Shown here one piece after another: positions 12,087 to 62,017 of a stretch of DNA of 64,000 bases (position 1 is the stretch's first letter; each line of letters opens with the position of its first letter). The stretch comes from Escherichia phage vB_EcoM_SYGD1. Under the pieces are notes generated by a model. It did no database searches, was not told the origin of the DNA, and worked only from the letters and a program-made list of their open reading frames with translations. Location of the stretch: the sequence record MW883059; one strand, written 5' to 3'. A program made the translations under genes and the position numbers.

Positions 12087-12116
12087 GTTTACATCCCTGT
12101 TCTTCCGTGGTACTAT
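12087..12116 (+). promoter_or_regulatory. T4-type early promoter (-35 GTTTAC, 18-nt spacer, extended -10 TGgTACTAT)
   Basis: GTTTAC at 12087-12092, TACTAT at 12111-12116, AT-rich UP-like tract upstream; followed by a conserved leader and RBS GGAG before the ATG at 12151. Confidence 0.6.
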
Positions 12117-12150
12117 ACAACTATCAACTGATACGGATTTGGAGAATAAA

Positions 12151-12531
12151 ATGAAAATCGCTATTTTGGTTATTGCATTGGGTCTTACTGGTTGTGTAGC
12201 TCAAGGACCGGTAGTAAATCAATCTGATGTAGGAAAAATTGTAAACTGTTCAAGCAAATTTTATAATCCTAATGTTAAGTGTTATAAAGAAGCTCCAAAA
12301 CAGACAGTAGAACAAATGCAGGCGAATTTTGACGAAGCTATTCGCCCAGATGAATCTGCTCAAGCATATCGTAATTCGGATATAATTACACGCGAAGAAA
12401 AAATTGAAAACTACTGTGCTGAACTTTGGGCAAATTGGGCTAATAATTACCAATGGCGTACTGGTAAAAATGCTCCGATGGAGTATGTAGTGAATTCTTA
12501 TAATTCATGCGTAAAAAATTTGACTAAGTGA
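12151..12531 (+). CDS. putative lipoprotein (signal peptide with lipobox LTG-C)
   Basis: MKIAILVIALGLTGC is a typical lipoprotein signal and lipobox; own promoter and RBS. The track ORF 11962..12531 is an in-frame read-through of the promoter and leader, not the real N-terminus. Confidence 0.55.
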   Translation: MKIAILVIALGLTGCVAQGPVVNQSDVGKIVNCSSKFYNPNVKCYKEAPKQTVEQMQANFDEAIRPDESAQAYRNSDIITREEKIENYCAELWANWANNYQWRTGKNAPMEYVVNSYNSCVKNLTK

Positions 12532-12538
12532 GGAAAAG

Positions 12539-12790
12539 ATGGAAACTTTAGTAGCAGGTTCAATTTTTATGGTTTTAGTTTCAGGCGTGTTGGCTATTAT
12601 TATATACATGCTTCCATGGTTCATCGCCTTGATGCGTGGGTCAAAATCGACAGTAGGAATCTTTTTCACATCTTTACTGTTTAACTGGTCAATTATTGGT
12701 TGGTTTATTACCTTTATTTGGTCAATTGCAGGTGAAACTAAAAAATCTGCACAGCAAAATCAAGTAATTATCATCAGAGAGAAGGAATGA
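12539..12790 (+). CDS. imm: Imm superinfection immunity membrane protein
   Basis: 83 aa with two hydrophobic helices; size and position between 43 and 42 match T4 Imm. Confidence 0.75.
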   Translation: METLVAGSIFMVLVSGVLAIIIYMLPWFIALMRGSKSTVGIFFTSLLFNWSIIGWFITFIWSIAGETKKSAQQNQVIIIREKE

Positions 12791-12943
12791 AAAGCAAAAT
12801 TTTAACAGTATTGCTTTTAATCTTGATGATTATAATAAGTATATACTATAGCGTAACGGTTCCTTGTATGATTCCGACACTTATTATAGGTTGGGGTTTA
12901 TTACTGTTACAAGTTAAATATGAATGTATCAATTGAGGTTTAA

Positions 12944-13684
12944 ATGATTAGTGACTCTATGACAGTTGAAGAAATCCGTCTTCATTTGGGGCTTGCATTA
13001 AAGGAAAAAGATTTCGTAGTTGATAAAACTGGCGTTAAAACTATTGAAATTATTGGCGCATCATTTGTAGCAGATGAACCGTTTATTTTTGGCGCTCTTA
13101 ATGATGAATACATTCAGCGTGAACTTGAATGGTATAAATCTAAAAGTTTGTTTGTTAAAGATATTCCGGGTGAAACACCAAAGATTTGGCAACAGGTAGC
13201 ATCTTCTAAAGGCGAAATTAACTCGAATTATGGTTGGGCTATCTGGTCAGAAGATAACTATGCCCAGTATGATATGTGTTTAGCTGAGCTTGGTCAAAAT
13301 CCTGATTCTCGACGTGGTATCATGATTTATACTCGTCCATCCATGCAATTTGACTACAATAAAGATGGCATGTCAGATTTCATGTGTACGAATACAGTAC
13401 AGTACCTGATTCGTGATAAGAAAGTCAATGCAGTAGTTAACATGAGAAGTAATGATTGTTGGGCAGGCTATCGTAATGATTATGCATGGCAAAAATACGT
13501 ATTAGATAAATTAGTATCTGATTTGAATACAGGCGACCCGTCGCGGCAATATAAAGCAGGTTCTATTATATGGAATGTTGGAAGTCTTCATGTGTACGAA
13601 AATCAATTTTATTTAGTTGACCATTGGTGGAACACCGGTGAAACTCACATTGCTAAAAAGGATTATACCGGAAAATGGAAGTAA
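12944..13684 (+). CDS. 42: gp42 dCMP hydroxymethylase
   Basis: 246 aa, thymidylate-synthase-like fold; same length and position as T4 gp42. Confidence 0.9.
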   Translation: MISDSMTVEEIRLHLGLALKEKDFVVDKTGVKTIEIIGASFVADEPFIFGALNDEYIQRELEWYKSKSLFVKDIPGETPKIWQQVASSKGEINSNYGWAIWSEDNYAQYDMCLAELGQNPDSRRGIMIYTRPSMQFDYNKDGMSDFMCTNTVQYLIRDKKVNAVVNMRSNDCWAGYRNDYAWQKYVLDKLVSDLNTGDPSRQYKAGSIIWNVGSLHVYENQFYLVDHWWNTGETHIAKKDYTGKWK

Positions 13685-14316
13685 ATGTTCCACATGTTTA
13701 TAAGTATAAACATCCTAAAACTAAAAAGTGGTATATAGGAAGTCATGATGGTCACAACCCGAATTATGATGGTTCGGGTGTAGTTTGGCAGCATGCTAAA
13801 AAGAAATATGGAATAAAATCCTTTAATAAAGAAATATTATATGAAGGACCGATGTTTAGACAAGTTGAAGAAATTATTTTAACTTGTTTAGATGCTGCTA
13901 ATTGCCCGGATTCATATAATTTAAAGAATGAAGCGTGGGGAGGAAGTTTTCCAGGTAAATTAAATGGAATGTACGGTAAGAAACTATCTCCAGAAGAAAG
14001 ATATAAATGTGGAAATGCCTTTCGTGGAATCAAGCGTCCTGATCATTCTAAAAGAATGAAAGGCGAAGGTAATCCAATGTATGGTAAAAATGAGCAGGCA
14101 TATGGAATTATAAATCGAGCAAAGGAAAATTCTGGTAAAACTTATGAAGAAATTTTTGGCGCAGAAAAAGCTAAAATAATTAAAGAAACGATGTCTAAAA
14201 ATCGTAAAGGAAAACCTCATAATTTGATAGAAAAAATATGTCCGCATTGCGGACTAAAAGGACGTGGGCCAAATATGACAAGATACCATTTTGACAAATG
14301 TAAGGCACTTAAATGA
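13675..14316 (+). CDS. GIY-YIG homing endonuclease (Seg-like) with C-terminal zinc finger
   Basis: N-terminal GIY-YIG motifs VYKYKH ... KKWYIGSH; C-terminal CPHCGLKGRGPNMTRYHFDKC; start overlaps the gene 42 stop. Confidence 0.7.
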   Translation: MEVNVPHVYKYKHPKTKKWYIGSHDGHNPNYDGSGVVWQHAKKKYGIKSFNKEILYEGPMFRQVEEIILTCLDAANCPDSYNLKNEAWGGSFPGKLNGMYGKKLSPEERYKCGNAFRGIKRPDHSKRMKGEGNPMYGKNEQAYGIINRAKENSGKTYEEIFGAEKAKIIKETMSKNRKGKPHNLIEKICPHCGLKGRGPNMTRYHFDKCKALK

Positions 14317-15155
14317 TTCAATTCGTAATTCCAAGCTATCAACGCGTAGGGGCAGTTTCTGCCCTTGATATGTTTCCATCTGATTATGAACCACATATTG
14401 TAGTACGTGAACACGAAGAAAAAGCTTATTATGATGCTTATGGGTCTAGAGCTAAAATTATAACTATTCCTGATGATGTCAATGGAATTGCTGGTACTCG
14501 TAAAGCGATTACTGATATGTATGCAGGTCAACGAATTTGGATGATCGATGATGATACTACTATTCGTATGAGTTCAATGCGAAAGAAAGATGATCGTCGC
14601 TGTGTAGATAAAATTAATCAGTTAACCCGTGAACAGTTCTATGAATTGATTCAATACGTTGAAGATGCTATGGATTGCGGGTATTATCATGGTCATGCTC
14701 GTCTACCTATTTTTAAAATTACTTCATCTTGGGGTAATTATCGTGAAAATTCATATGGATTCACGAATACATGGTATGACCTCGGGAAACTTACAACAGA
14801 ACAAATTGGGTATGGAAAAATTGATTTATGCGAAGATATGTATGCATTTCTCAATTTAATTAATCAAGGTTATCCGCATTTGGCTTTGTTCAAATATCTG
14901 GTTGTGTCTGGAAAAGCACAAGCTCCTGGCGGATGTAGTTCAATTCGTAGTAATTCAAAACATAATAGAGCTCTTGAGCAAATCAATAGAGAGTTTCCAG
15001 AGCAAGCTCGTTGGAAAACATCGAATATTGAAAAGAGAAAATCGTTGGGTGAAGAAGACGAGCCATTAAAGGTTCTTCGTATGTGTGTTTCACGTAAAGA
15101 AAAGTCAGAAGCATTTCATAAGTTTAATGCTATTCATCCAATAGCAGTTGATTAA
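14313..15155 (+). CDS. putative DNA-modifying glycosyltransferase (GT-A-like, DxD motif), not T4-type beta-gt
   Basis: 280 aa with WMIDDDTTI; occupies the T4 beta-gt position between 42 and uvsX but does not resemble T4 beta-gt (351 aa) as I recall it. Confidence 0.5.
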   Translation: MIQFVIPSYQRVGAVSALDMFPSDYEPHIVVREHEEKAYYDAYGSRAKIITIPDDVNGIAGTRKAITDMYAGQRIWMIDDDTTIRMSSMRKKDDRRCVDKINQLTREQFYELIQYVEDAMDCGYYHGHARLPIFKITSSWGNYRENSYGFTNTWYDLGKLTTEQIGYGKIDLCEDMYAFLNLINQGYPHLALFKYLVVSGKAQAPGGCSSIRSNSKHNRALEQINREFPEQARWKTSNIEKRKSLGEEDEPLKVLRMCVSRKEKSEAFHKFNAIHPIAVD

Positions 15156-15173
15156 TGCCTAAATTTATTGTGT

Positions 15174-15179
15174 TATAAT
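15174..15179 (+). promoter_or_regulatory. extended -10 promoter element (TGT-TATAAT) upstream of uvsX
   Basis: TGTTATAAT read directly; no clear GTTTAC -35 at standard spacing. Confidence 0.35.
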
Positions 15180-15232
15180 TACCCTATCTTTAACCAGTGA
15201 GGAAAATATAATGATGCCTATGGAAAAAATGA

Positions 15233-16162
15233 ATGTCTATTGCAGATTTAAAATCCCGTTTGATTAAAGCTTCCACTTCTAAAATGACTGCTGAACTGAC
15301 TACATCTAAATTCTTTAATGAAAAGGATGTAATCCGTACAAAAATCCCAATGCTTAATATCGCTATTTCCGGTGCGATTGATGGCGGTATGCAGTCTGGT
15401 TTAACTATTTTTGCAGGTCCTTCTAAACACTTTAAATCAAATATGTCTTTGACTATGGTTGCGGCGTATTTGAACAAATATCCTGACGCGGTTTGTCTAT
15501 TTTATGATAGCGAATTTGGTATTACTCCAGCTTATTTGCGGTCCATGGGAGTTGACCCTGAACGAGTAATTCATACGCCAATTCAGTCAGTTGAACAACT
15601 GAAAATTGATATGGTGAATCAGCTTGAAGCTATCGAGCGCGGTGAAAAAGTTATTGTATTCATCGACTCAATCGGTAATATGGCTTCTAAGAAAGAAACG
15701 GAAGATGCCTTGAATGAAAAATCTGTGGCAGATATGACTCGTGCTAAATCACTGAAGTCATTATTCCGTATTGTTACTCCTTATTTTAGTATTAAAAACA
15801 TTCCATGTGTTGCGGTTAACCATACAATTGAAACAATTGAAATGTTTAGTAAAACCGTGATGACAGGTGGTTGTGTTATTGCTGGTACTAAAATCCAGAT
15901 GTCCGATGGTTCTACTAAAGCAGTTGAAGATATTCGTCCAGGTGAGCGTGTTAAAACCATGGTCGGTGATAATGAAGTAACTTATGTTTGGGACCCCGAA
16001 ACTCTGGCTGAAGGTACTCCTGAATGTTTCGAAATTGAATTCGAAGACGGTTATAAAGTAACTACTTCAGATACTCACAAGTTCCTGGTAATGGTTAAAG
16101 ACATTCCAACTTGGGTTGAAGCTAAAGATTTAGTAGCTGGAATGGATTGTGTTGTAAGGTAA
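15233..16162 (+). CDS. uvsX: UvsX recombinase N-terminal fragment (residues 1-213) fused to an intein N-half (96 aa), then stop
   Basis: The first 213 aa are near-identical to T4 UvsX as I recall it (Walker A GPSKHFKS). From Cys214 (nt 15872) the sequence CVIAGTKIQ...TSDTHKFLV...MDCVVR has intein block A/B character and ends at tandem TAA TAA stops. Confidence 0.85.
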   Translation: MSIADLKSRLIKASTSKMTAELTTSKFFNEKDVIRTKIPMLNIAISGAIDGGMQSGLTIFAGPSKHFKSNMSLTMVAAYLNKYPDAVCLFYDSEFGITPAYLRSMGVDPERVIHTPIQSVEQLKIDMVNQLEAIERGEKVIVFIDSIGNMASKKETEDALNEKSVADMTRAKSLKSLFRIVTPYFSIKNIPCVAVNHTIETIEMFSKTVMTGGCVIAGTKIQMSDGSTKAVEDIRPGERVKTMVGDNEVTYVWDPETLAEGTPECFEIEFEDGYKVTTSDTHKFLVMVKDIPTWVEAKDLVAGMDCVVR

Positions 16163-16165
16163 TAA

Positions 16166-16207
16166 ATATGGGTACCGGACTAATGTATATTTTTGAGGTA
16201 CCCATAT
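16166..16207 (+). promoter_or_regulatory. perfect 11-bp hairpin (ATATGGGTACC / GGTACCCATAT) sequestering the RBS and start codon of the endonuclease gene
   Basis: The 3' arm (16197-16207) covers the last GG of the GAGG Shine-Dalgarno and the AT of the ATG at 16206; 20-nt loop; AATAAATA (16161-16168) immediately 5' resembles a late promoter. Confidence 0.55.
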
Positions 16208-16928
16208 GAATTTTGTCTATAAAATTGTGTTCAACGATAGAATTAAAAACGGCACTCCGCCATATTACTACATAGGGAGCAAGACAAATGCTTCTTATGT
16301 AGATGGTAAGATTATTGACGCCCACGGTCGTGAGTACTATGGCTCATCGAGATATCCCGGATATCATGATTTTATCAATAATGTTACTGTTGAAATATTG
16401 GAGCAATATGATGATATTAAACACACTAAACTGCTAGAGCGCGAAAATTTCTATCAGAAACAAGTAAATGTTAAAACAAATCCAGATTATTTTAATTTAG
16501 ATTATGCTTGTGGGCATAATTCATATGCTAATGCTGATTTTGCATCATACAAGCATTATATAACAGGTAAATGTATTCGTCTTGAAAGAAACCATCCGCT
16601 TGTTAAATCTGGTGTGTATGTTGGCGTCACAAAAGGCGTGAAATCTTCTGATGAACACCGTAAGCACATATCAGAAGGTATTACCGGAGAAAACAATGGG
16701 TTCTATGGTAAGAAACACACTAAAGAAACAATTAATAAAATATCAGAAAAAGCAAAGAAAAGATTAAAGCATTCCCATCCTAGACAAAAAGGTGTTATCA
16801 TAAACGGTATTGAATACCGGGGCGTCAGACCTGCTGCAAGAGCGTTGGGAATTAATCCTAACACAATTATCAACAAAATTAAAGCTAATATAAAAGGATG
16901 GGCTTATGCAGTAGATGCACGCGGTTAA
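16206..16928 (+). CDS. free-standing GIY-YIG homing endonuclease (Seg-like) located between the two uvsX fragments
   Basis: 240 aa; GIY-YIG motifs FVYKIVF ... PPYYYIGSK; own RBS; different reading frame from the upstream uvsX fragment; paralogous to the ORF at 60053..60685. Confidence 0.75.
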   Translation: MNFVYKIVFNDRIKNGTPPYYYIGSKTNASYVDGKIIDAHGREYYGSSRYPGYHDFINNVTVEILEQYDDIKHTKLLERENFYQKQVNVKTNPDYFNLDYACGHNSYANADFASYKHYITGKCIRLERNHPLVKSGVYVGVTKGVKSSDEHRKHISEGITGENNGFYGKKHTKETINKISEKAKKRLKHSHPRQKGVIINGIEYRGVRPAARALGINPNTIINKIKANIKGWAYAVDARG

Positions 16929-17036
16929 GGCATTCGAAGATATGGTAAAAGAATTTGGAATGAACATGACAATCAAGATTATGCTTTCATGAAATATGTA
17001 TATTGAAACTAGCTACTACGAAACACAAGGTAAAGT

Positions 17037-17684
17037 ATGAAAATTAAATCTGTTAAATCTGTTGGTAAAAAAGAAGTCTATGATTTGTCTGTTGCTGACG
17101 TCGAGCATTATGTTTTAGAAAATGGTATCGTTACACACAACACAGGCGTAATGTATTCGGCTGATACTGTGTTCATTATCGGTAAGCGTCAGATTAAAGA
17201 TGGTTCTGATCTTCAAGGGTATCAATTTGTTCTAAATGTAGAAAAATCTCGTACCGTTAAAGAAAAAAGTAAATTCTTTATTGATGTTAAATTTGACGGT
17301 GGTATCGATCCTTATTCTGGATTGTTAGATATGGCTCTAGAATTAGGATTTGTAGTAAAACCTAAAAATGGCTGGTATGCTCGTGAATTTCTTGACGAAG
17401 AAACCGGCGAGATGATTCGCGAAGAAAAATCTTGGCGTGCAAAAGATACCAATTGCACTACATTCTGGGGTCCTTTATTTAAGCATCAACCATTCCGAGA
17501 TGCTATTAAACGTGCTTATCAGTTAGGTGCTATTGATAGTAATGAAATTGTTGAAGCTGAAGTTGATGAATTGATTAACTCAAAGGTTGAAAAATTTAAA
17601 TCTCCAGAAAGTAAAAACAAATCAGCAGCTGATTTAGAAACTGACCTAGATCAGTTAAGTGATATGGAAGAATTTAATGAATAA
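17037..17684 (+). CDS. uvsX: intein C-half (35 aa) fused to the UvsX recombinase C-terminal fragment (180 aa)
   Basis: After ...IVTHN the sequence TGVMYSADTVFIIGKRQIKDG...SDMEEFNE matches the T4 UvsX C-terminal half as I recall it; RBS AAGG precedes the ATG at 17037. Confidence 0.85.
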   Translation: MKIKSVKSVGKKEVYDLSVADVEHYVLENGIVTHNTGVMYSADTVFIIGKRQIKDGSDLQGYQFVLNVEKSRTVKEKSKFFIDVKFDGGIDPYSGLLDMALELGFVVKPKNGWYAREFLDEETGEMIREEKSWRAKDTNCTTFWGPLFKHQPFRDAIKRAYQLGAIDSNEIVEAEVDELINSKVEKFKSPESKNKSAADLETDLDQLSDMEEFNE

Positions 17685-18015: not shown

Positions 18016-18024
18016 GGAGTAAGT

Positions 18025-19452
18025 GTGGTAGAAATTATTCTTTCTCATCTCATATTTGATCAAGCTTATTTTTCAAAAGTTTGGCCATATATGGATTCAG
18101 AATATTTTGAAAGTGGTCCAGCTAAAAATACATTCAAATTAATTAAATCTCATGTTAATGAGTACCATAGCGTTCCATCTATTAATGCGTTAAATGTTGC
18201 ATTAGAAAATAGTTCATTTACTGAAACAGAATATTCTGGTGTAAAAACACTTATTTCAAAACTAGCCGATTCTCCGGAAGACCACAGCTGGTTAGTAAAA
18301 GAAACAGAAAAATATGTTCAGCAAAGGGCGATGTTTAATGCTACGTCTAAAATAATTGAAATTCAAACTAATGCTGAGCTTCCTCCGGAAAAACGCAATA
18401 AGAAAATGCCGGATGTTGGTGCTATTCCTGACATCATGCGTCAAGCATTATCAATTTCATTTGATAGCTACGTTGGCCATGATTGGATGGATGACTATGA
18501 AGCACGTTGGCTATCTTATATGAATAAAGCTCGTAAGGTTCCATTTAAACTCAAAATTCTAAATAAAATTACTAAAGGCGGAGCTGAAACTGGAACACTG
18601 AACGTTTTAATGGCTGGTGTTAACGTTGGTAAGTCATTAGGTCTGTGTTCATTGGCAGCAGATTATTTACAGCTCGGTCATAATGTTCTTTACATTTCCA
18701 TGGAAATGGCAGAAGAAGTCTGTGCTAAACGTATTGACGCTAATATGCTCGATGTTTCTCTTGATGACATTGATGATGGGCATATTTCTTATGCTGAGTA
18801 TAAAGGAAAAATGGAAAAATGGCGTGAGAAATCTACTCTCGGCCGTTTAATCGTTAAGCAATATCCTACTGGTGGAGCAGACGCTAATACATTTCGATCG
18901 CTTTTAAACGAATTAAAGCTCAAGAAGAATTTTGTTCCAACAATCATTATTGTTGACTATCTAGGTATTTGTAAATCTTGCCGCATCAGAGTTTACTCAG
19001 AAAATAGTTACACAACTGTTAAAGCCATTGCAGAGGAATTGCGTGCTCTGGCTGTTGAAACCGAAACTGTTCTTTGGACTGCAGCACAGGTTGGTAAGCA
19101 AGCTTGGGATTCTTCTGATGTTAACATGAGCGATATTGCAGAATCTGCCGGTCTTCCAGCAACAGCCGATTTTATGCTTGCGGTCATTGAAACCGAGGAG
19201 TTAGCAGCTGCTGAACAACAACTAATTAAGCAAATCAAATCACGATATGGTGATAAGAATAAATGGAATAAGTTTTTGATGGGTGTTCAAAAAGGAAATC
19301 AGAAATGGGTAGAAATTGAACAAGATTCTACTCCAACTGAAGTTAACGAAGTAGCAGGTTCACAGCAGATTCAGGCTGAACAGAACCGCTATCAAAGAAA
19401 CGAATCCACCCGAGCTCAGTTAGATGCTTTGGCGAATGAATTAAAATTTTAG
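18025..19452 (+). CDS. 41: gp41 replicative DNA helicase (DnaB-like)
   Basis: 475 aa as in T4 gp41; Walker A GVNVGKS, Walker B IIIVDYLG. Confidence 0.9.
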   Translation: MVEIILSHLIFDQAYFSKVWPYMDSEYFESGPAKNTFKLIKSHVNEYHSVPSINALNVALENSSFTETEYSGVKTLISKLADSPEDHSWLVKETEKYVQQRAMFNATSKIIEIQTNAELPPEKRNKKMPDVGAIPDIMRQALSISFDSYVGHDWMDDYEARWLSYMNKARKVPFKLKILNKITKGGAETGTLNVLMAGVNVGKSLGLCSLAADYLQLGHNVLYISMEMAEEVCAKRIDANMLDVSLDDIDDGHISYAEYKGKMEKWREKSTLGRLIVKQYPTGGADANTFRSLLNELKLKKNFVPTIIIVDYLGICKSCRIRVYSENSYTTVKAIAEELRALAVETETVLWTAAQVGKQAWDSSDVNMSDIAESAGLPATADFMLAVIETEELAAAEQQLIKQIKSRYGDKNKWNKFLMGVQKGNQKWVEIEQDSTPTEVNEVAGSQQIQAEQNRYQRNESTRAQLDALANELKF

Positions 19453-19481
19453 TTTACAAGCTGACAAGACTATGATATAGT
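19452..19481 (+). promoter_or_regulatory. T4-type early promoter (GTTTAC-N18-TATAGT) with an 8-bp inverted repeat spanning spacer and -10
   Basis: GTTTAC 19452-19457, TATAGT 19476-19481; inverted repeat CAAGACTA / TAGTCTTG at 19464-19471 and 19482-19489. Confidence 0.5.
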
Positions 19482-19510
19482 AGTCTTGTTGGTTAAATGA
19501 GGAGATTGTT

Positions 19511-19693
19511 ATGGAATTGGTAAAGGTAGTTTTTATGGGGTGGTTTAAGAATGAAAGCATGTTTACTAAAGAAATCACAATGATGAAAGACGACGTTCAA
19601 TGGGCTACTACTCAATATGCTGAAGTTAATAAAGCATTAGTTAAAGCTTTCATTGATGACAAGAAAGTATGCGAAGTGGATTGCCGAGGGTAA
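19511..19693 (+). CDS. dmd: Dmd-like small protein (antitoxin against host RnlA/LsoA in T4)
   Basis: 60 aa, same length as T4 Dmd; position just downstream of gene 41. Confidence 0.55.
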   Translation: MELVKVVFMGWFKNESMFTKEITMMKDDVQWATTQYAEVNKALVKAFIDDKKVCEVDCRG

Positions 19694-19694
19694 T

Positions 19695-19916
19695 ATGCAT
19701 ATCGTTTTATTTAAACCTACTCCGTATAATGTCAGGAAAAATACTCAATTCAAGGCACTTATTGCGGATACGTGGGAATTGGTGTTAGATATTCCAGCAG
19801 AAGAAAGTCCTCCATTTGGTCGAGTGGAATTTATTAAGTTTGCTGTGCGCCCTACGAAGCGACAGATTCGCCAATGCAAAAGAGACTTTCGTAAAATAGT
19901 CAAGTTAGAGAAATAG
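19695..19916 (+). CDS. hypothetical small protein
   Basis: ATG at 19695 preceded by GAGG; the longer track ORF from 19653 overlaps dmd. Confidence 0.35.
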   Translation: MHIVLFKPTPYNVRKNTQFKALIADTWELVLDIPAEESPPFGRVEFIKFAVRPTKRQIRQCKRDFRKIVKLEK

Positions 19917-19939
19917 TTATTGATGCTAGTAAAATAGTA

Positions 19940-19969
19940 GTTTACAAGCTGATAGAGTTGTGTTATAGT
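19940..19969 (+). promoter_or_regulatory. T4-type early promoter (GTTTAC-N18-TATAGT) with an inverted repeat in the spacer
   Basis: GTTTAC 19940-19945, TATAGT 19964-19969; inverted repeat GCTGATAG / CTATCAGC flanks the -10. Confidence 0.5.
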
Positions 19970-20000
19970 AATTCTATCAGCTAATCGCGGAGAAAAGAAA

Positions 20001-20255
20001 ATGATGCTAGTTAATAGAGAATATCAGTTTAAATCAGAAGAAGATTTTGAAAAATTCGCAAGTGGTTGTGAACTGAATAGACGCACAGCTAAAGTCATAG
20101 GATTAAAACCCTTTACAGTTCTAGATTGTGAAGTTTCTAAATTCCGCAGAGGGTGTTCTATTAGCGGTCATGCTCTGGTTGATGGGAACACATTTTTCTT
20201 TGTTTTTAGCGTCAGAGAACTTTTATTGATTAACGAACTTGAGGAAATAAAATAG
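20001..20255 (+). CDS. hypothetical small protein
   Basis: 84-aa ORF downstream of an early promoter. Confidence 0.4.
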   Translation: MMLVNREYQFKSEEDFEKFASGCELNRRTAKVIGLKPFTVLDCEVSKFRRGCSISGHALVDGNTFFFVFSVRELLLINELEEIK

Positions 20256-20312
20256 TTTACTTTTGTTGGAAATTGAGATACTATATAAACATAAACTACT
20301 GAGGAGATTATC

Positions 20313-20606
20313 ATGAAAAAATTTGTTTTTGCTGCAATTTTTGCTTTGGCTTCTTGTACTGCTCAGCCTGCTATGGCAGGTTATGATAAAGATTTGTGTG
20401 AATGGTCTATGACTGCAGATCAGACTGAGGTTGAAACTCAGATTGAAGCAGATATTATGAATATCGTTGAGCGTGATCGCCCTGAAATGAAAGCTGAAGT
20501 ACAAAAACAACTTAAGTCTGGTGGTGTAATGCAGTATAATTACGTTTTGTATTGTGATAAAAACTTCAATAATAAAAATATCATCGCTGAAGTGGTAGGT
20601 GAATAA
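20313..20606 (+). CDS. sp: Sp (spackle)-like periplasmic protein with signal peptide
   Basis: 97 aa, the length of T4 Sp; N-terminal signal peptide MKKFVFAAIFALASCTAQPAMA; RBS GAGGAG. Confidence 0.55.
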   Translation: MKKFVFAAIFALASCTAQPAMAGYDKDLCEWSMTADQTEVETQIEADIMNIVERDRPEMKAEVQKQLKSGGVMQYNYVLYCDKNFNNKNIIAEVVGE

Positions 20607-22012: not shown

Positions 22013-22040
22013 ATGTCCTCCTTATTGCTTTATATATTTA

Positions 22041-22049
22041 TTGTATAAT
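22041..22049 (+). promoter_or_regulatory. extended -10 promoter element (TGT-TATAAT) upstream of gene 56
   Basis: TTGTATAAT read directly, about 40 nt upstream of the gene 56 ATG. Confidence 0.35.
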
Positions 22050-32059: not shown

Positions 32060-32548
32060 ATGATTATTAATATTGGTGAATTAGCTCGTGTATCTGATAA
32101 ATCCCGTTCTAAAGCAGCAGGAAAATTGGTCGAAATTGTAAGCATTCAGCTTAAACACGGCGTTAAAGATGAAGATTCTGAAGTAAAAGTGCGTATCATT
32201 CCTAAAGATGGAAAGTCTAAACCTCAGTTTGGCTATGTTCGTGCGAAATTTCTTGAATCTGCGTTTTTGAAAGCTGTTCCTGCTAAAGGAATTGAAACGA
32301 TTGATACTTCGCATGTAGGTGTAGACTTTAAGTGGAAACTCGGTCAGGCTATTAAGTTCATTGCTCCTTGTGAATTTAAATTTATCAAAGATGATGGTGT
32401 GGCTGTTTATACTCGTGCTATGTGTGCATACATTACCGATCAGTGGGTAGAAGATGGTGTTAAGCTGTACAACGTGGTATTTTTAGGAACATACAAAGTC
32501 ATTCCTGAAAGCTGGATTAAACACTATAGCAAAGCTCTCTATGCATAA
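32060..32548 (+). CDS. MotB-like protein
   Basis: 162 aa, the size of T4 MotB; paralog of the upstream ORF; assignment by size and position. Confidence 0.4.
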   Translation: MIINIGELARVSDKSRSKAAGKLVEIVSIQLKHGVKDEDSEVKVRIIPKDGKSKPQFGYVRAKFLESAFLKAVPAKGIETIDTSHVGVDFKWKLGQAIKFIAPCEFKFIKDDGVAVYTRAMCAYITDQWVEDGVKLYNVVFLGTYKVIPESWIKHYSKALYA

Positions 32549-32645
32549 AGTTTAAAATTTTTTCATAAAACTATATACATCAGTAGTTGATTATGGTACT
32601 ATATCAATATCAACTACTGATACAGAAAACAACTTGGAGAATAAA

Positions 32646-32915
32646 ATGGAAAACTTAATTATCATCGAACAATCTTTCAACGATTATGGTATGGCTTATG
32701 GTTATCGTGCGATAATGGAAGATTCTCGTGGATGTGTTATCGATATTGCAGAATGTAAAGATTTACTGCAGCTTTTGAAGATTGTTCGCAAAAATTGGGA
32801 TTGTGAAAACATTAAAGCTCGTGTTGTAACGGAAGAAGAAACTGTTTTTCATGATGTAAAATTCGCCAAAGGTGCTGCTACTCTTCTGAAACGCATCGCT
32901 CCACTGTTCAATTAA
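32646..32915 (+). CDS. hypothetical small protein
   Basis: ATG at 32646 after the conserved leader and GGAG; the track start at 32634 is TTG within the leader. Confidence 0.4.
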   Translation: MENLIIIEQSFNDYGMAYGYRAIMEDSRGCVIDIAECKDLLQLLKIVRKNWDCENIKARVVTEEETVFHDVKFAKGAATLLKRIAPLFN

Positions 32916-34447: not shown

Positions 34448-36268
34448 GTGATGATTAAGAATGAAATTAAAATTCTGAGCGATATTGAACATATCAAAAA
34501 GCGTAGCGGCATGTACATTGGCTCTTCTGCTAATGAAATGCATGAGCGCTTTCTGTTTGGTAAATGGGAAAGTGTTCAGTATGTACCTGGTCTTGTTAAG
34601 CTTATTGATGAAATTATCGATAACTCAGTAGATGAAGGTATTCGTACTAAGTTTAAATTCGCAAATAAAATTAATGTTACTATTAAAAACAATCAAGTAA
34701 CAGTTGAAGATAACGGTCGCGGTATTCCACAAGCGATGGTTAAAACACCTACCGGTGAAGAAATTCCTGGTCCAGTTGCTGCATGGACTATTCCAAAAGC
34801 AGGTGGTAACTTCGGTGATGATAAAGAACGCGTCACTGGTGGTATGAACGGTGTTGGTTCTAGTTTAACTAACATTTTTTCTGTGATGTTTGTCGGTGAA
34901 ACTGGTGATGGTCAAAATAATATTGTAGTTCGTTGTTCAAACGGCATGGAAAATAAATCGTGGGAAGATATTCCTGGAAAATGGAAAGGAACTCGCGTTA
35001 CTTTCATTCCTGATTTTATGTCATTTGAAACTAATGAGCTATCTCAAGTTTATCTTGACATTACACTAGATCGTCTCCAGACACTTGCAGTAGTTTATCC
35101 TGATATTCAATTTACCTTTAATGGTAAAAAGGTTCAGGGTAATTTTAAGAAATATGCACGCCAATATGATGAACATGCTATCGTTCAAGAACAAGAAAAC
35201 TGTTCTATCGCGGTTGGTCGTTCACCGGATGGTTTTCGTCAATTAACGTACGTCAATAACATTCATACTAAGAATGGTGGCCATCATATTGACTGCGTTA
35301 TGGATGATATTTGTGAAGACCTTATTCCGCAAATCAAACGTAAATTCAAAATTGATGTAACTAAAGCACGTGTTAAAGAATGTTTGACTATCGTTATGTT
35401 TGTTCGTGATATGAAAAACATGCGATTTGATTCTCAAACTAAAGAGCGTTTGACTTCTCCATTTGGTGAAATCCGTAGTCATATTCAACTTGATGCTAAA
35501 AAGATTTCACGTGCTATTTTAAATAATGAAGCAATTTTAATGCCAATTATTGAAGCTGCCTTGGCTCGTAAATTGGCGGCAGAAAAAGCAGCAGAAACTA
35601 AAGCAGCTAAAAAGGCTTCTAAAGCTAAGGTTCATAAACATATTAAAGCGAATCTTTGCGGTAAAGATGCTGACACTACTCTTTTCTTGACTGAGGGTGA
35701 TTCTGCTATCGGATATCTTATTGATGTTCGTGATAAAGAACTTCATGGTGGTTATCCATTGCGTGGTAAAGTTCTTAACAGTTGGGGTATGTCATATGCT
35801 GATATGCTTAAAAACAAAGAACTGTTTGATATTTGCGCAATCACTGGATTGGTTCTTGGTGAAAAAGCTGAAAACTTGAATTATCATAATATTGCTATTA
35901 TGACTGATGCTGACCATGATGGTCTAGGAAGCATTTATCCTTCTCTGCTAGGATTTTTTAGTAATTGGCCAGAACTGTTTGAACAAGGAAGAATTCGCTT
36001 TGTCAAAACTCCTGTAATCATCGCTCAGGTCGGTAAAAAACAAGAATGGTTTTATACAGTCGCTGAATATGAGAGTGCCAAAGATGCTCTACCTAAACAT
36101 AACATCCGTTATATTAAGGGACTTGGCTCTTTGGAAAAATCTGAATATCGTGAGATGATTCAAAACCCAGTATATGATGTTGTTAAACTTCCTGAGAATT
36201 GGAAAGAGCTTTTTGAAATGCTCATGGGAGATAATGCTGACCTTCGTAAAGAATGGATGAGCCAATAG
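34448..36268 (+). CDS. 39: gp39 DNA topoisomerase II large (ATPase, GyrB-like) subunit, continuous 39+60 form
   Basis: 606 aa; GHKL ATPase motifs (DNSVDEG, GRGIP, GGMNGVGSS) and TOPRIM region; no separate gene 60 and no bypass-type interruption. Confidence 0.9.
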   Translation: MMIKNEIKILSDIEHIKKRSGMYIGSSANEMHERFLFGKWESVQYVPGLVKLIDEIIDNSVDEGIRTKFKFANKINVTIKNNQVTVEDNGRGIPQAMVKTPTGEEIPGPVAAWTIPKAGGNFGDDKERVTGGMNGVGSSLTNIFSVMFVGETGDGQNNIVVRCSNGMENKSWEDIPGKWKGTRVTFIPDFMSFETNELSQVYLDITLDRLQTLAVVYPDIQFTFNGKKVQGNFKKYARQYDEHAIVQEQENCSIAVGRSPDGFRQLTYVNNIHTKNGGHHIDCVMDDICEDLIPQIKRKFKIDVTKARVKECLTIVMFVRDMKNMRFDSQTKERLTSPFGEIRSHIQLDAKKISRAILNNEAILMPIIEAALARKLAAEKAAETKAAKKASKAKVHKHIKANLCGKDADTTLFLTEGDSAIGYLIDVRDKELHGGYPLRGKVLNSWGMSYADMLKNKELFDICAITGLVLGEKAENLNYHNIAIMTDADHDGLGSIYPSLLGFFSNWPELFEQGRIRFVKTPVIIAQVGKKQEWFYTVAEYESAKDALPKHNIRYIKGLGSLEKSEYREMIQNPVYDVVKLPENWKELFEMLMGDNADLRKEWMSQ

Positions 36269-36297
36269 TTTACTTTACCACAAGGATGTGGTATAAT
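36268..36297 (+). promoter_or_regulatory. T4-type early promoter (GTTTAC-N18-TATAAT)
   Basis: GTTTAC 36268-36273, TATAAT 36292-36297. Confidence 0.55.
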
Positions 36298-36322
36298 TAA
36301 TTGGGCAAATGAGGATATTGAA

Positions 36323-40255: not shown

Positions 40256-40745
40256 TTTGACTAGTGAAATGAAGGTCAAAATTGCTGATACAGCAAGATA
40301 CTCTTTAAAACAAAACCCGAACCAGGATAAAGCAGAAGTTATCGAAAGATGCCGTATCGCCGTGTACGCAGAGTTTTTTGTAGCAGATTGGCTAAGCGGG
40401 TATGTTAACAAAGGCCAAGAGGATGTTAATGACCCGTATACATACGCATGGGATGTATTGGCACACCCAAGATACTGCGGGCTTCGTGTAGAAGTTAAGA
40501 CACATCAAACTGACTCACGTTGGATTTCGGTAACAACCGGATGCAGCGGAGAGTATCCATACGGTTCTGGAATAAATCTAGGGCCCATTCTGAATCATCA
40601 GGTCGCTGACTGTATAATTATATTCAACACTAAAGAAATTCATCCAGGTGTCATCCAGTACACTCCGAAGTTCATCGGTGATAGAGAAGACCTTCGTAAG
40701 GTTGTAAGAAAAAGCAACTACAACGGATGGTATCTTTCCATTTAA
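40188..40745 (+). CDS. denB: DenB-like endonuclease IV
   Basis: 185 aa, the size of T4 DenB, in the expected position after rIIB; true start uncertain. Confidence 0.55.
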   Translation: MQKTNPGLQRLFQIPTFTLSNNDLTSEMKVKIADTARYSLKQNPNQDKAEVIERCRIAVYAEFFVADWLSGYVNKGQEDVNDPYTYAWDVLAHPRYCGLRVEVKTHQTDSRWISVTTGCSGEYPYGSGINLGPILNHQVADCIIIFNTKEIHPGVIQYTPKFIGDREDLRKVVRKSNYNGWYLSI

Positions 40746-40761
40746 AAAATTTCACAAAACA

Positions 40762-40791
40762 GTTTACATACCACAAGGACTGTGGTACTAT
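40762..40791 (+). promoter_or_regulatory. T4-type early promoter (GTTTAC-N18-TGgTACTAT) with conserved leader
   Basis: GTTTAC 40762-40767, TACTAT 40786-40791; leader ACAACTATCAACTGATGCGGATTTGGAGAATAAA-ATG. Confidence 0.6.
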
Positions 40792-40825
40792 ACAACTATC
40801 AACTGATGCGGATTTGGAGAATAAA

Positions 40826-41032
40826 ATGTTTACTACAGCTGAATTAAAACGAGCAAAAGCTAAGAAAGGGCAAGGAAAATATAAAGCTGAATTAGTTAAA
40901 GAACTTCAGTTTGCTGAGGCTGAATTGAATTCAATGATTATTCAAAATGCTCCAGAAACTGAAATTGCTCTTAAACGTATTGTGAATAAGTGTCTTCGTG
41001 ATGCAATCGTCGATCTTTTAGCGGATTATTGA
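40826..41032 (+). CDS. hypothetical small protein
   Basis: ATG at 40826 after the conserved leader; the track start at 40727 reads through the promoter. Confidence 0.4.
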   Translation: MFTTAELKRAKAKKGQGKYKAELVKELQFAEAELNSMIIQNAPETEIALKRIVNKCLRDAIVDLLADY

Positions 41033-41301
41033 GTAAAATGAAATTTAAATTTTATTACGCTAAACATAAAATAACTGATGAGTTTGTGTCAGTTGAATAT
41101 TCTAGCGATGATGAAGGTATGATTTATACTCGCTTGGGACTATCGCACTGGGAGTCTGACACGCCTTATTTTTCAACTCTCGAAGAAATTACACGCTTAG
41201 TTAATGGTCATATGAATGATCACTGGGATGTAATTCTTTCAGATAGTCTTAAAGCGGCTATTAATAGTAATGAAATGAAAATCGCTGGGATTGAACTATG
41301 A
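41029..41301 (+). CDS. hypothetical small protein
   Basis: 90-aa ORF. Confidence 0.4.
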   Translation: MSKMKFKFYYAKHKITDEFVSVEYSSDDEGMIYTRLGLSHWESDTPYFSTLEEITRLVNGHMNDHWDVILSDSLKAAINSNEMKIAGIEL

Positions 41302-41486
41302 GTTCATTATGGTGGTGTTTTGTTTGGTTAATTAGTATTCCATTAATTTGTTTAACATTTACTTTTGTGATGAGGTTATTATGAAAATTTTGAATTCTGT
41401 ACTTATTGCTTGTGCGTGGTGGGTTGCACAAGTTTCGGCAGTGGTGATTGGTATTCACATTTATTACGAATATTTTTAAAAAAGTT

Positions 41487-41516
41487 GTTTACAAGACTGT
41501 TCCTCTGTGGTATTAT
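41487..41516 (+). promoter_or_regulatory. T4-type early promoter (GTTTAC-N18-TATTAT)
   Basis: GTTTAC 41487-41492, TATTAT 41511-41516. Confidence 0.5.
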
Positions 41517-41544
41517 TACCCTATCAACTACGGAGGAACAGAAA

Positions 41545-41658
41545 ATGAAAAAGATTGTTAAAGCTATATGGAATGTAGTTATAATACTAGTAGTTTTAAG
41601 TATATTCCCAATCGTTTTAATGATTGATGTATTAAACGCTTACTTTGGATTTATGTGA
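41545..41658 (+). CDS. small hydrophobic membrane peptide
   Basis: 37 aa, one TM helix; ATG after RBS GGAGGA. Confidence 0.35.
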   Translation: MKKIVKAIWNVVIILVVLSIFPIVLMIDVLNAYFGFM

Positions 41659-44557: not shown

Positions 44558-44585
44558 AGGGAGAGCCGAGGCTCTCCCTTTTTAT
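44558..44585 (+). terminator. intrinsic terminator (AGGGAGAGCC-GAG-GCTCTCCCT + T-tract)
   Basis: 10-bp perfect stem followed by TTTTTATTTT. Confidence 0.6.
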
Positions 44586-44607
44586 TTTAAAATTTTTTCA
44601 CAAAACG

Positions 44608-44637
44608 GTTTACAACCAAAGCATACTGTGGTACTAT
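44608..44637 (+). promoter_or_regulatory. T4-type early promoter (GTTTAC-N18-TGgTACTAT) with conserved leader, upstream of motA
   Basis: GTTTAC 44608-44613, TACTAT 44632-44637; leader ACAACTATCAACT... Confidence 0.6.
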
Positions 44638-44678
44638 ACAACTATCAACTACTGATACAGAATTACGGAGATTAGAAA

Positions 44679-45314
44679 ATGTCTAAAGTAACTTACATCA
44701 TCAAAGCTTCTAACGATGTTCTGAATGAAAAAACTGCTGCGATTTTAATTACCATTGCTAAGAAAGATTTCATTACAGCTGCAGAAGTTCGTGAGGTGCA
44801 TCCAGATTTAGGTAATGCAGTAGTTAATAGTAATATTGGGGTATTGATTAAAAAAGGCTTGGTGGAGAAATCTGGTGATGGATTAATCATTACTGGTGAA
44901 GCTCAGGATATTATTTCAAATGCAGCAACTTTATACGCACAGGAAAATGCTCCGGAACTACTGAAAAAACGAGCAACTCGTAAAGCTCGCGAAATTACTT
45001 CTGATATGGAAGAAGATAAAGACCTCATGCTAAAACTTTTAGATGAAAATGGATTTGTTCTTAAAAAGGTTGAAACTTATCGTAGTAACTATCTCGCTAT
45101 TTTAGAAAAACGCACTCACGGAATTCGTAATTTTGAAATTAACAACAATGGAAATATGCGAATTTTTGGATACAAAATGATGGAACATCATATCCAAAAA
45201 TTTACTGATATCGGTATGTCATGTAAAATCGCTAAAAACGGTAATGTGTATCTTGACATTAAACGCTCGGCAGAAAACATTGAAGCTGTAATCACCGTAG
45301 CATCTGAACTGTGA
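44679..45314 (+). CDS. motA: MotA middle-transcription activator
   Basis: 211 aa, the T4 MotA length; position downstream of gene 52. Confidence 0.8.
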   Translation: MSKVTYIIKASNDVLNEKTAAILITIAKKDFITAAEVREVHPDLGNAVVNSNIGVLIKKGLVEKSGDGLIITGEAQDIISNAATLYAQENAPELLKKRATRKAREITSDMEEDKDLMLKLLDENGFVLKKVETYRSNYLAILEKRTHGIRNFEINNNGNMRIFGYKMMEHHIQKFTDIGMSCKIAKNGNVYLDIKRSAENIEAVITVASEL

Positions 45315-57785: not shown

Positions 57786-57819
57786 TCTCCCGGGCTCCTA
57801 TTGTGTTTTCAATAATAAG

Positions 57820-57827: not shown

Positions 57828-57830
57828 CTT

Positions 57831-57860
57831 GTTTACTTTAAGATTTTGATGGTATATAAT
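57831..57860 (+). promoter_or_regulatory. T4-type early promoter (GTTTAC-N18-TATAAT) for rnh, divergent from the gene 34 late promoter
   Basis: GTTTAC 57831-57836, TATAAT 57855-57860. Confidence 0.55.
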
Positions 57861-57889
57861 AGAAATCTCACTAATTGAACGAGGTTCAT

Positions 57890-58807: not shown

Positions 58808-58815
58808 GGTGAATA

Positions 58816-60051: not shown

Positions 60052-60052
60052 T

Positions 60053-60685
60053 ATGAATATAGTATATTGGTTTACATTTGAAGACCGTATCAAAAATAAG
60101 ACTCCGCCGTACTACTATATCGGCAGTAAATTAAATTGCTCATTTGAGAATGGAATAATATATGACTCTTCCGGAAAGGAATACTGGAGTTCGTGTAAAC
60201 AAAAAAGATTTTTAAATGCGGTAATGCTTCAAAAACCGAGCGTTAAAATAATTCAAATTGATGATGATTTGGATGTTATTGAAGCAGAGCGAAAATACCA
60301 ACTTGAAGTAAATGCCAGAGATAATCCAGACTATTTTAATCTGGTATATGCCGGTGGCGGATTTGGTGTGAGTGGTGAAACTCATCCAGCCAAAGACCCG
60401 GAAGTTAGAGAGCATATGAGATTGGCTAATTATATGAACCGTGACGATTTTAGACCTTGGAAAACATCACGAGCTAATATAGAGTCTTGGAAATTATCTC
60501 ATATTGCTTACGAGAATTATGTGTTATTATTATCCTCTAATCTGTACGGTAAAACTCCTGGATGGCGAAGAGTTAAAGGTAATATAAATATAACTGATAC
60601 AACTGCTAAATCGATGGTAAAGTATTTCAATTCAGGTTGGATACCTCTCGAAGACCCAGAGTATTGCGAATTATGCCAGCTATGA
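60053..60685 (+). CDS. GIY-YIG homing endonuclease (SegG-like, between genes 59 and 32)
   Basis: 210 aa; IVYWFTF ... PPYYYIGSK; paralog of the endonuclease inside uvsX (shared NPDYFNL block). Confidence 0.7.
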   Translation: MNIVYWFTFEDRIKNKTPPYYYIGSKLNCSFENGIIYDSSGKEYWSSCKQKRFLNAVMLQKPSVKIIQIDDDLDVIEAERKYQLEVNARDNPDYFNLVYAGGGFGVSGETHPAKDPEVREHMRLANYMNRDDFRPWKTSRANIESWKLSHIAYENYVLLLSSNLYGKTPGWRRVKGNINITDTTAKSMVKYFNSGWIPLEDPEYCELCQL

Positions 60686-60735
60686 GGTAAAGTGTCATAG
60701 CACCAACTGTTAATTAAATTAAAAAGGAAATAAAA

Positions 60736-61644
60736 ATGTTTAAACGTAAATCTACTGCTGAACTCGCTGCACAAATGGCTAAACTGGCTGGAAATAAAGG
60801 TGGTTTTTCTTCTGAAGATAAAGGCGAGTGGAAACTGAAACTCGATAATGCGGGTAACGGTCAAGCAGTAATTCGTTTTCTTCCGTCTAAAAATGATGAA
60901 CAAGCACCATTCGCACTTCTTGTAAATCACGGTTTCAAGAAAAATGGTAAATGGTATATCGAAACATGCTCATCTACCTACGGTGATTACGATTCTTGTC
61001 CAGTATGTCAGTACATCAGTAAAAATGATTTGTACAATACTGACAATAAAGAGTACGGTCTTGTTAAACGTAAAACTTCTTACTGGGCTAACATTCTTGT
61101 TGTAAAAGACCCAGCTGCTCCAGAAAATGAAGGTAAAGTATTTAAATACCGTTTCGGTAAGAAAATCTGGGATAAAATCAATGCAATGATTGCAGTTGAT
61201 GTTGAAATGGGTGAAACTCCGGTTGATGTAACTTGTCCGTGGGAAGGTGCTAACTTTGTACTGAAAGTTAAACAAGTTTCTGGTTTTAGTAACTACGACG
61301 AATCTAAATTCCTGAATCAATCTGCGATTCCAAACATTGATGATGAATCTTTCCAGAAAGAATTGTTCGAACAAATGGTTGACCTTTCTGAAATGACTTC
61401 TAAAGATAAATTCAAATCGTTTGAAGAACTGAGCACTAAGTTCAGTCAAGTTATGGGAACTGCTGCTATGGGTGGTGCCGCAGCAACTGCCGCTAAGAAA
61501 GCTGATAAAGTTGCTGATGATTTGGATGCATTTAATGTTGATGACTTCAAAACAAAAACTGAAGATGATTTTATGAGCTCAAGCTCTGGCAGTTCATCTA
61601 GTGCTGATGACACGGACCTGGATGACCTTTTGAATGACCTTTAA
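60736..61644 (+). CDS. 32: gp32 single-stranded DNA-binding protein
   Basis: 302 aa; N-terminus [17 protein letters not shown], zinc-binding Cys/His residues, acidic Ser/Asp-rich C-terminal tail. Confidence 0.9.
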
Positions 61645-61666
61645 TAGATTATATTACTAATTAATT

Positions 61667-61690
61667 GGGGACCCTAGAGGTCCCCTTTTT
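61667..61690 (+). terminator. intrinsic terminator (GGGGACC-CTAGAG-GTCCCC + T6)
   Basis: Stem-loop plus T-tract after gene 32. Confidence 0.6.
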
Positions 61691-61716
61691 TATTTCAAAA
61701 ATTTTTTCACAAAACG

Positions 61717-61746
61717 GTTTACAGGCATAAAGCTTTATGGTACTAT
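61717..61746 (+). promoter_or_regulatory. T4-type early promoter (GTTTAC-N18-TGgTACTAT) with conserved leader
   Basis: GTTTAC 61717-61722, TACTAT 61741-61746. Confidence 0.6.
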
Positions 61747-61789
61747 ACAACTATCGGCAATACTGCTGATGATTAAAGAGGAAAATAAC

Positions 61790-62017
61790 ATGGCTAAAAT
61801 TGATATTGATGTTGTTGATTTTGAATATATTGAAGAAATTATTCGTAATCGTTATCCTGAACTCCGTATTACAAGCGCACTAAATGACCCCAATTGCAAT
61901 GTTTCAGTTGTTATTGAAGGTCCTTTAAATCGTCTTAAACAATTTATGGTTAATGAATATTGTGACGGTATGGATGCTGAAGATGTAGAATTTTACACAG
62001 GATTTATTGAGCAGTAA
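61790..62017 (+). CDS. hypothetical small protein
   Basis: ATG at 61790 after GAGGAAAA; the track start at 61769 is in the leader. Confidence 0.4.

Follow-up and report, generated by a model that had tools for sequence, protein, structure and literature searches.

Repeated early-promoter and leader cassettes in Escherichia phage vB_EcoM_SYGD1 and their relation to the PeSLs of T4-type phages

Promoter-early stem-loop cassettes (PeSLs, a Krisch laboratory term) were first described in phages RB49 and phi1 (PMC2839356) and later in the PST/T4 pair (PMC4122927). In RB49 and phi1 they are conserved promoter and terminator elements of ~100 bp that flank ORFans and act as linkers for modular shuffling; their sigma-70 hexamers are near-perfect (TTGACA/TATAAT), G/C-rich stem-loops often lie within the promoter, and the authors regarded the T-even elements as analogues, not homologues (PMC2839356). 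The PST/T4 version reads TTTACW-N17-TAYWAT, with an AT-rich region and a stem-loop upstream and a Shine-Dalgarno sequence (SD) and start codon on the 3' side (PMC4122927). T4 early promoters are described as "UP/-35/TGn/-10," with further consensus regions (PMC2988021), and GGAGAAUAAAA has been experimentally defined in T4 as the optimal 11-nt RegB/S1 cleavage site (Durand 2006, PMC1702504), a site that usually also serves as the SD of early mRNAs (PMC1702504). The motA mRNA is a published RegB substrate (PMC2988021, PMC1702504). How do the repeated promoter-plus-leader segments of Escherichia phage vB_EcoM_SYGD1 (MW883059) compare with these systems? We analyzed a 64,000-nucleotide stretch of this genome (hereafter, the window), in which a sequence-only reading had claimed that a conserved cassette of this kind recurs in front of unrelated small genes and had pointed to PeSLs in T4-type phages—systems that do exist in the literature (Arbiol 2010, PMC2839356; Comeau 2014, PMC4122927). 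The five segments are very probably paralogous T4-type immediate-early promoter and leader modules, that is, PeSLs, whose identity stems from selection plus recombination between copies.

Five repeated cassettes and their counterparts in T4

Direct reading finds all five segments at the positions where they had been claimed. The 18-mer TGGTACTATACAACTATC occurs without mismatches at 12108, 40783, 44629, and 61738 and with three mismatches at 32594, always on the + strand, where dinucleotide-preserving shuffles predict 0.09 matches; the block TTTTTCACAAAACNGTTTAC lies upstream of all five copies (0.12 matches expected from shuffles). These controls rule out chance repetition of the segments. 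A multiple alignment of the five copies, which the sequence-only reading had proposed as a check, gave a mean column identity of 73% over 137 columns. The repeat finder sorts the copies into families D1–D3, and 12107-12153 and 40782-40828 are identical at 46 of 47 positions (98%; family D17), the ATG included. Two details of the earlier description had to be amended: its 18 nt after GTTTAC is the distance to TACTAT, the distance to TGG being only 15 nt, and the copy it placed at 32597 is present but truly starts at ~32559, with a degenerate -35 (ATATAC) at 32573.

The similarity between cassettes is not continuous but comes in blocks. Each has the order TTTTTCACAAAAC-N-GTTTAC, 15-nt spacer, TGG-TACTAT-ACAACTATC, leader, SD, and start codon, and SD and ATG terminate all five copies. 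GTTTAC is present in four of them, with TTTACA-17 nt-TACTAT, and the copy at 32573 has ATATAC; TGG precedes TACTAT in all five, and the A/T-rich AAAATTTTTTCACAAAAC lies upstream of the -35. To set these figures in context, we compared mean pairwise identities with those of a further 11 early promoters of the window, taken as + strand matches to GTTTAC-N17-TAnnnT. The five copies were far more alike in the 25-nt UP block (0.72 vs. 0.39), the TGn/-10 nonamer (1.00 vs. 0.71), and the 12 nt past the -10 (0.83 vs. 0.37). Because these block identities exceed those of other early promoters, the similarity extends well beyond the two hexamers: UP, extended -10, and post--10 blocks are shared, one pair is alike as far as the ATG, and a resemblance confined to the -35 and -10 hexamers does not describe the data. 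The 15-nt spacer, by contrast, stays at background (0.37 vs. 0.31), which led us to reject the idea that entire cassettes were recently duplicated, whether in tandem or dispersed. The same value speaks for pure functional convergence—copies independently selected to one promoter/ribosome-binding-site consensus, with no role for recombination—since recent duplicates should match in the spacer too. Convergence also fits the coincidence of the conserved blocks with known contact regions (UP, -35, TGn/-10, start site, and RegB/S1-SD), and part of the conservation is indeed plain functional constraint on RNA polymerase contacts and the RegB/S1 site. It does not, however, explain why the 46 of 47 identical positions of the closest pair include leader positions without known contact, and the spacers weigh more heavily against it, as set out below.

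Cassette 1 (12062..12153, +), before imm.1, has its UP/-35 block at 12073-12092 (GTTTAC 12087-12092), spacer at 12093-12107, TGn/-10/start block at 12108-12125 (-10 TACTAT 12111-12116), and the RegB/S1-SD site GGAGAATAAAA of its leader at 12141-12151, with the ATG at 12151; the T4 orthologue is at T4 27080 (imm.1). Cassette 2, a variant located after motB (32548..32648, +), has its UP block at 32559-32578, including the degenerate -35 at 32573-32578, which is the same in T4. There follow TGGTACTAT at 32594-32602, a leader beginning AACTACTGATACAG, a RegB/S1-SD site at 32636-32646, and at 32646 the ATG of an 89-aa open reading frame (ORF); its T4 counterpart lies at ~6640, between motB and cef. 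Cassette 3 (40748..40828, +) comes directly after the denB stop codon, with no hairpin, and comprises GTTTAC at 40762-40767, the core at 40783-40800, a RegB/S1-SD site at 40816-40826, and the ATG at 40826 (T4 orthologue 167086, ndd.6 region). Cassette 4 (44594..44681, +) is the motA early promoter and leader, with GTTTAC at 44608-44613, the core at 44629-44646, the SD GGAG at 44667-44670, and the ATG at 44679 (T4 orthologue 163673). Cassette 5 (61703..61792, +) precedes frd.3, with GTTTAC at 61717-61722, the core at 61738-61755, the SD GAGG, and the ATG at 61790 (T4 orthologue 146875); the ATG at 61769 of the ORF list is probably not the frd.3 start. The terminator scan recovers the three hairpins claimed upstream of copies: intrinsic terminators, all on the + strand, after gene 43 (11982..11999; AGGGACC-TCCG-GGTCCCT, then a T run), after motA.1 (44558..44579; a 9-bp stem, then a T run), and after gene 32 (61667..61685). 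A hairpin thus accompanies three of the five copies (cassettes 1, 4, and 5), that of cassette 1 standing ~88 nt upstream of the -35, and such a terminator would insulate its unit against transcription from upstream.

Are these cassettes new? Judged by its matches, the window is from a Tequatrovirus: its segments are 95–97% identical to T4-like coliphage and Shigella phage records, hundreds of which matched, and it is ~95% identical to T4 and colinear with it over most of its length at ~92–97% identity, with the early genes on the + strand. T4 has the cassettes at the same positions, and both the denB-downstream copy and its neighbor carry promoter annotation, with -35 and -10 signals, in the T4 record X75802; by position and annotation, therefore, the cassettes are well-known T4 early promoters. 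An A/T-rich UP element, a GTTTAC -35, a TGn-extended -10, and a start-site consensus are common to the window copies and the T4 early promoters (Hinton 2010, PMC2988021), with no essential difference. At these sites the -10 is TACTAT in both window and T4, whereas other early promoters of the window have TATAAT, and the window and T4 cassettes differ slightly, in the presence or absence of ACT in the leader and in spacer type. T4 early promoters are reportedly also catalogued by Liebig & Ruger 1989 and by Wilkens & Ruger. In SYGD1, transcription would start ~7 nt past TACTAT, to go by the position of the -10, and the cassettes are predicted to be strong promoters, early in timing.

The likeness to PeSLs is equally close. 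With those of PST/T4, the window cassettes share the composite layout and adjoining ORFs that differ between close relatives, although a stem-loop is nearby in only three of the five; with those of RB49 and phi1 they share the concept of conserved promoter and terminator elements next to ORFans, but not the hexamers. Fig. 6A of Comeau 2014 (PMC4122927) takes the denB-ndd locus with PST ORF269/ORF268 as its example, and homologues of both ORFs stand behind the 40762 copy. Since this example is already published, the pointer to PeSLs was accurate, and the cassette finding is a rediscovery, correctly interpreted, of something already known.

What does the leader contribute? It would be ~28–45 nt long. 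The 3' block GGAGAATAAAA-TG at 12141, 32636, and 40816 is an exact GGAGAAUAAAA, the RegB/S1 site, in three of the five copies. The degenerate motif GGAGRAYARAA has four perfect matches in the window (12141, 32636, 40816, and 62472), all of them SDs of early leaders, where 0.4 are expected by chance. Like the known RegB/S1 targets, these four sites, the three in cassettes and the one belonging to the 62427 promoter, are predicted to be single-stranded and double as SD, while the motA leader of the window has a variant site, GGAGAUUAGAA, though motA is a published substrate. RegB may act on SYGD1 as it does on T4: an open leader would give strong translation until RegB cut within the SD and shut the gene off. 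Selection on RNA polymerase and RegB/S1 contacts would then be one cause of the extended identity, and recombination between copies, visible when other phages are compared, would be the other.

Alternatively, the leader could be a structured regulatory RNA (a riboswitch, an attenuator, or a 5' stabilizing hairpin), or it could encode a leader peptide or a genuine N-terminal extension (...TIQLSTDxDLENK). An imperfect palindrome, TATCA..TGATA, at the predicted 5' end is consistent with structure, as is a 7-bp 5' hairpin in the frd.3 leader (-7.6 kcal/mol; a modest z = -1.8), in which one natural variant (L039) turns a G.U pair into A-U. Yet the leaders of the other four copies fold no better than shuffled sequence (z -0.4 to +1.5), an Rfam scan of the whole window returned no hits to any known RNA family at the gathering threshold, and the small hairpin is disrupted, with no compensating change, in natural variants such as AACTAATACGG. 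On the strength of these fold scores and of natural G-to-A variants that break the pairing, we rejected TATCA..TGATA as a conserved 5' leader hairpin. A coding extension was likewise rejected, for it lacks its own SD, and its reading frame crosses the promoter and, in cassette 1, the terminator too. The sequence-only reading had rightly called such extensions spurious: ORFs 11962-12531 and 40727-41032 read GTIQLSTDTDLENK-MKIAI and GTIQLSTDADLENK-MFTTA, respectively, with the cassette-derived residues standing before the true Met. A structured or coding leader is thus very improbable, and a promoter with an open leader remains our preferred reading.

Spacer and leader reassortment across phages

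If the spacers of the five copies are no more alike than background, how do they vary among phages? We sorted 85 exact-core instances from ~20 phages (IMG/VR contigs, metagenome contigs, T4, and ime09) by flanking context. Most loci have their own spacer: type S4 follows denB in 11 of 11 genomes, S3 belongs to motA in nine of nine, and S2 to another locus in seven of seven. The frd.3 promoter, flanked by a constant gene-32 terminator upstream and a constant leader and gene downstream, carries spacer type S1 in five genomes, S2 in two (T4 and this window), S3 in two, and S4 in two, and each of these types is fixed at some other locus. Convergence cannot be the source of non-consensus 15-mers that are identical from one locus to the next; they indicate ectopic exchange of short patches, bounded by the UP/-35 and -10/start blocks; because spacers are swapped between loci, the frd.3 promoter occurs with at least four borrowed spacers in nature. 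Nor are the chimeric promoters assembly artifacts, as the same 141-nt frd.3 regions are found in independently sequenced isolate genomes at ≥99% identity (the S4 form in eight records, the S3 form in four, one of them 100% identical, and the S1 form in 60). Leaders reassort as well: AACT(ACT)GATACGGATTTGGAGAATAAAATG is found at three loci in front of no fewer than seven unrelated ORFs, and the ORF MKFKFYYAK... has the same promoter with two different leaders.

Identical non-consensus 15-mers in different places and genomes, together with a single promoter carrying four spacer types at home elsewhere, largely refute pure convergence, which we now regard as improbable. The alternative that fits them is that the ~20-nt conserved blocks act as patches of homology for ectopic gene conversion of spacer or leader segments between loci. 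For the Tequatrovirus early-promoter cassettes as a class, we give even weight to the proposal that very short patches—the unconstrained 15-nt spacer and, independently, the leader—move by ectopic gene conversion from one promoter to another tens of kilobases away; such conversion would need only the ~20-nt UP/-35 and -10/start blocks as homology. Spacer swapping between distant loci is not described in the PeSL papers PMC2839356 and PMC4122927.

Within the window itself, the spacer of the promoter at 36268-36299, TTTACCACAAGGATG, agrees with that of the denB-downstream promoter at 40762-40793, ATACCACAAGGACTG, at 12 of 15 positions (repeat family D6), which suggests that spacer families are shared within this genome too.

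Incomplete cassettes also occur. STML-198, a Salmonella phage of the genus Gelderlandvirus and so of another genus than Tequatrovirus, has the -10 and the full leader TACTATACAACTATCAACTGATACGGATTCGGAGAATAAAATATG (L074, 2490-2545) with the UP/-35 block absent; this "half cassette" lies between an ADP-ribosylase gene and a 59-aa ORF downstream. In the degraded cassettes of IMG/VR contig 2974787500_000001 (L014 and L027), a terminator hairpin is fused to the spacer or to the -10, the UP/-35 block being deleted; they resemble the "half PeSLs" of Comeau 2014.

Could the cassettes instead belong to a dedicated mobile element, as integron-like attachment sites or as the ends of a small transposable element? 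The -10 and leader fragment in another genus would suit such an element, and a cassette with its ORF does resemble an integron gene cassette, an analogy drawn by Arbiol 2010 (PMC2839356). Like integron gene cassettes and phage "morons," the window units are small accessory ORFs with a promoter, insulated by terminators. But unlike integrons, they have no integrase or attC, and recombination of the general or short-homology kind apparently brings about the exchange; a difference from morons is that what recombines is the regulatory sequence itself. None of the copies comes with an integrase or recombinase, the repeat search found neither target-site duplications nor terminal inverted repeats, junctions fall at variable short microhomologies rather than at a single fixed crossover point, and the edges of an exchange patch fall at any conserved block that happens to be in common. 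We therefore consider a dedicated mobile element hardly credible, and recombination between paralogous promoter and leader modules the better account.

Genes behind the cassettes

What do the cassettes drive, and does it vary? Directly behind them stand imm.1 (12151), the 89-aa motB-cef ORF (32646), a 68-aa post-denB ORF (40826), motA (44679), and frd.3 (61790). The five proteins fall into five different PHROG families, so the genes are unrelated, as had been claimed; they are not all small accessory genes, however, since motA encodes a conserved core regulator of 211 aa. The expectation that downstream gene content varies among related phages is borne out, with breakpoints that fall within leaders or at start codons: variable ORFs lie behind the gp43, denB, and motB copies, and the motA and frd.3 copies keep the same genes downstream.

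Behind cassette 3, two variable ORFs (40826..41301, +) encode 68 aa (40826-41032) and 90 aa (41029-41301). T4 lacks them, its cassette ATG being fused to their last eight codons (MKIAEIEL) at the junction AAT[A/G]AAATG. By its match to the window, the T4 ORF MKIAEIEL is what is left, at the C terminus, of a PST ORF268-type gene that is intact at 41029-41301. It is unannotated in T4, in the denB-downstream cassette (T4 167020-166994), and overlaps the ndd.6 start. Only 64 of the 421 phage-collection records that matched contain both window ORFs; others carry just one. At the gp43 cassette, some other phages have an extra ORF of 78–85 aa before imm.1, with the junction ATGAAAAT; behind motB, T4 has lost the 32646 ORF through an internal 200-bp deletion, which starts 8 nt past the ATG, and the 200-bp core of this ORF occurs in 260 records of the phage collection. 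A further junction of ORF gain or loss is GxAAAA. ORFs behind a cassette thus come and go, and the SD/ATG region is where the junctions lie; which of the two events each indel represents can be read only tentatively from such comparisons.

Are breakpoints concentrated in the cassettes? Early-promoter cassettes occupy 2.8% of the sequence and hold five of the 32 window-versus-T4 breakpoints (permutation P = 0.0016), a result that also argues against pure convergence. In the resolved indels, one end lies in a cassette and 5–9 nt of microhomology stand at the start codon. Exchange between two flanking cassettes was rejected as their cause, the junctions being one-ended and microhomologous. This differs from the PST/T4 PeSLs, as neither a two-PeSL exchange nor mini-circles were observed. 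The sequence-only proposal that the cassettes are recombination substrates that shuffle small genes is thus supported, by patch exchange and breakpoint enrichment, with the qualification that full cassette-to-cassette crossing-over does not appear, the indels being microhomology-based.

Several observations weigh against PeSLs shaped in part by recombination as the explanation of the five segments. The stem-loop gives PeSLs their name, yet the terminator scan found no hairpin at the 40762 and 32573 copies. The start site in SYGD1 is placed by the position of its -10; the frd.3 leader has no consensus RegB/S1 site, and regB lies outside the window. Among the breakpoints, 27 of 32 fall outside cassettes—most T4 synteny breaks are not at cassettes, as convergence would have it—and two insertions (16206-16928 and the uvsX split-intein region) have homing-endonuclease or intein signatures. 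Finally, the resolved indels include no exchange between two complete cassettes, so the mini-circle mechanism is not demonstrated.

Two related early promoters of the window form a second subclass (family D2) and have in common ...AAAAAGT(T/A)GTTTAC and T(A/G)... TATTACCCTATCAACTA-GGAG. One member (41466..41547, +) consists of AAAAAGTTGTTTAC followed by TGGTATTATTACCCTATCAACTACGGAGG and precedes an ndd.4-like ORF; it and cassette 3 stand on either side of the variable ORFs at 40826-41301. The other, the 62427 promoter (62404..62484, +), contains the perfect RegB/S1-SD site at 62472-62482, and a window-versus-T4 indel junction lies inside its leader (62468-62477). At 19442-20313, three early-type promoters are clustered, with their -35 elements at 19448, 19936/19940, and 20255; the first two form 64-nt repeats that are 70% identical (D10/D12). 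An 84-aa ORF between the second and third (20001-20255) is missing from T4 and has no Pfam match; both of its window-versus-T4 breakpoints fall in cassettes.

Other features of the window and meaning of the cassettes

A second, distinct family of repeated intergenic stem-loops was found by the repeat search alone: six GGGCTTCGGCCC-type hairpins with a UUCG tetraloop, located after genes at 1036, 7330, 9199, 34383, 39664, and 39893 (D4/D5). Relative to T4, the window is missing gene 61.2, the dam methyltransferase, and the mobA/60.1/gene-60 segment (window 20607, 22023-22044, 35868-35933, and 34448-36268), and its topoisomerase large subunit appears as a single fused 606-aa ORF (34448-36268), compared with the split genes 39 and 60 of T4. 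The T4 beta-glucosyltransferase/segA region is replaced (13676-15245), and ORF 14313-15155 there matches the TET-associated glycosyltransferase family PF20691. The uvsX gene is interrupted (15233-17684) by a 1280-bp insertion relative to T4. ORF 15233-16162 encodes the N-terminal part of UvsX/RecA and then an intein N-part starting CVIAGTKIQMSDG; ORF 16206-16928 has a NUMOD3 homing-endonuclease motif; and ORF 17037-17684 begins with the intein C-part (...GIVTHN|T), followed by the UvsX C-terminal domain. The gene is therefore probably split, the insertion being a candidate split intein accompanied by a NUMOD3 endonuclease gene that stands free. Only 13 phage-collection records match the insert, eight of them over ≥80% of its length, and Escherichia phage BYEP01 is 100% identical. 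No Pfam match was obtained for the other inserted ORFs tested, among them two of 284 aa (+ strand, 2675-3529) and 237 aa (- strand, 5226-5942). To specialists, the uvsX split intein may be more unusual than the cassettes.

What, then, do the cassettes mean for T4-like phages? Their main value is in annotation: they mark true start codons, and upstream ORF extensions of the type TIQLSTD.DLENK should therefore be trimmed. They also mark immediate-early transcription units and probable RegB-controlled genes, and flag the sites at which accessory ORFs are likeliest to differ among therapeutic and environmental T4-like phages. Their role in recombination backs the existing model of PeSLs and modular shuffling and opens no new question. 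Spacer swapping is a modest extra, an incremental advance that could possibly serve as a quantitative assay of short-homology recombination. If spacer conversion is general, the spacers would be natural markers for minimal-homology recombination in T4-like phages, and the "consensus" of T4 early promoters would be kept partly by concerted evolution.

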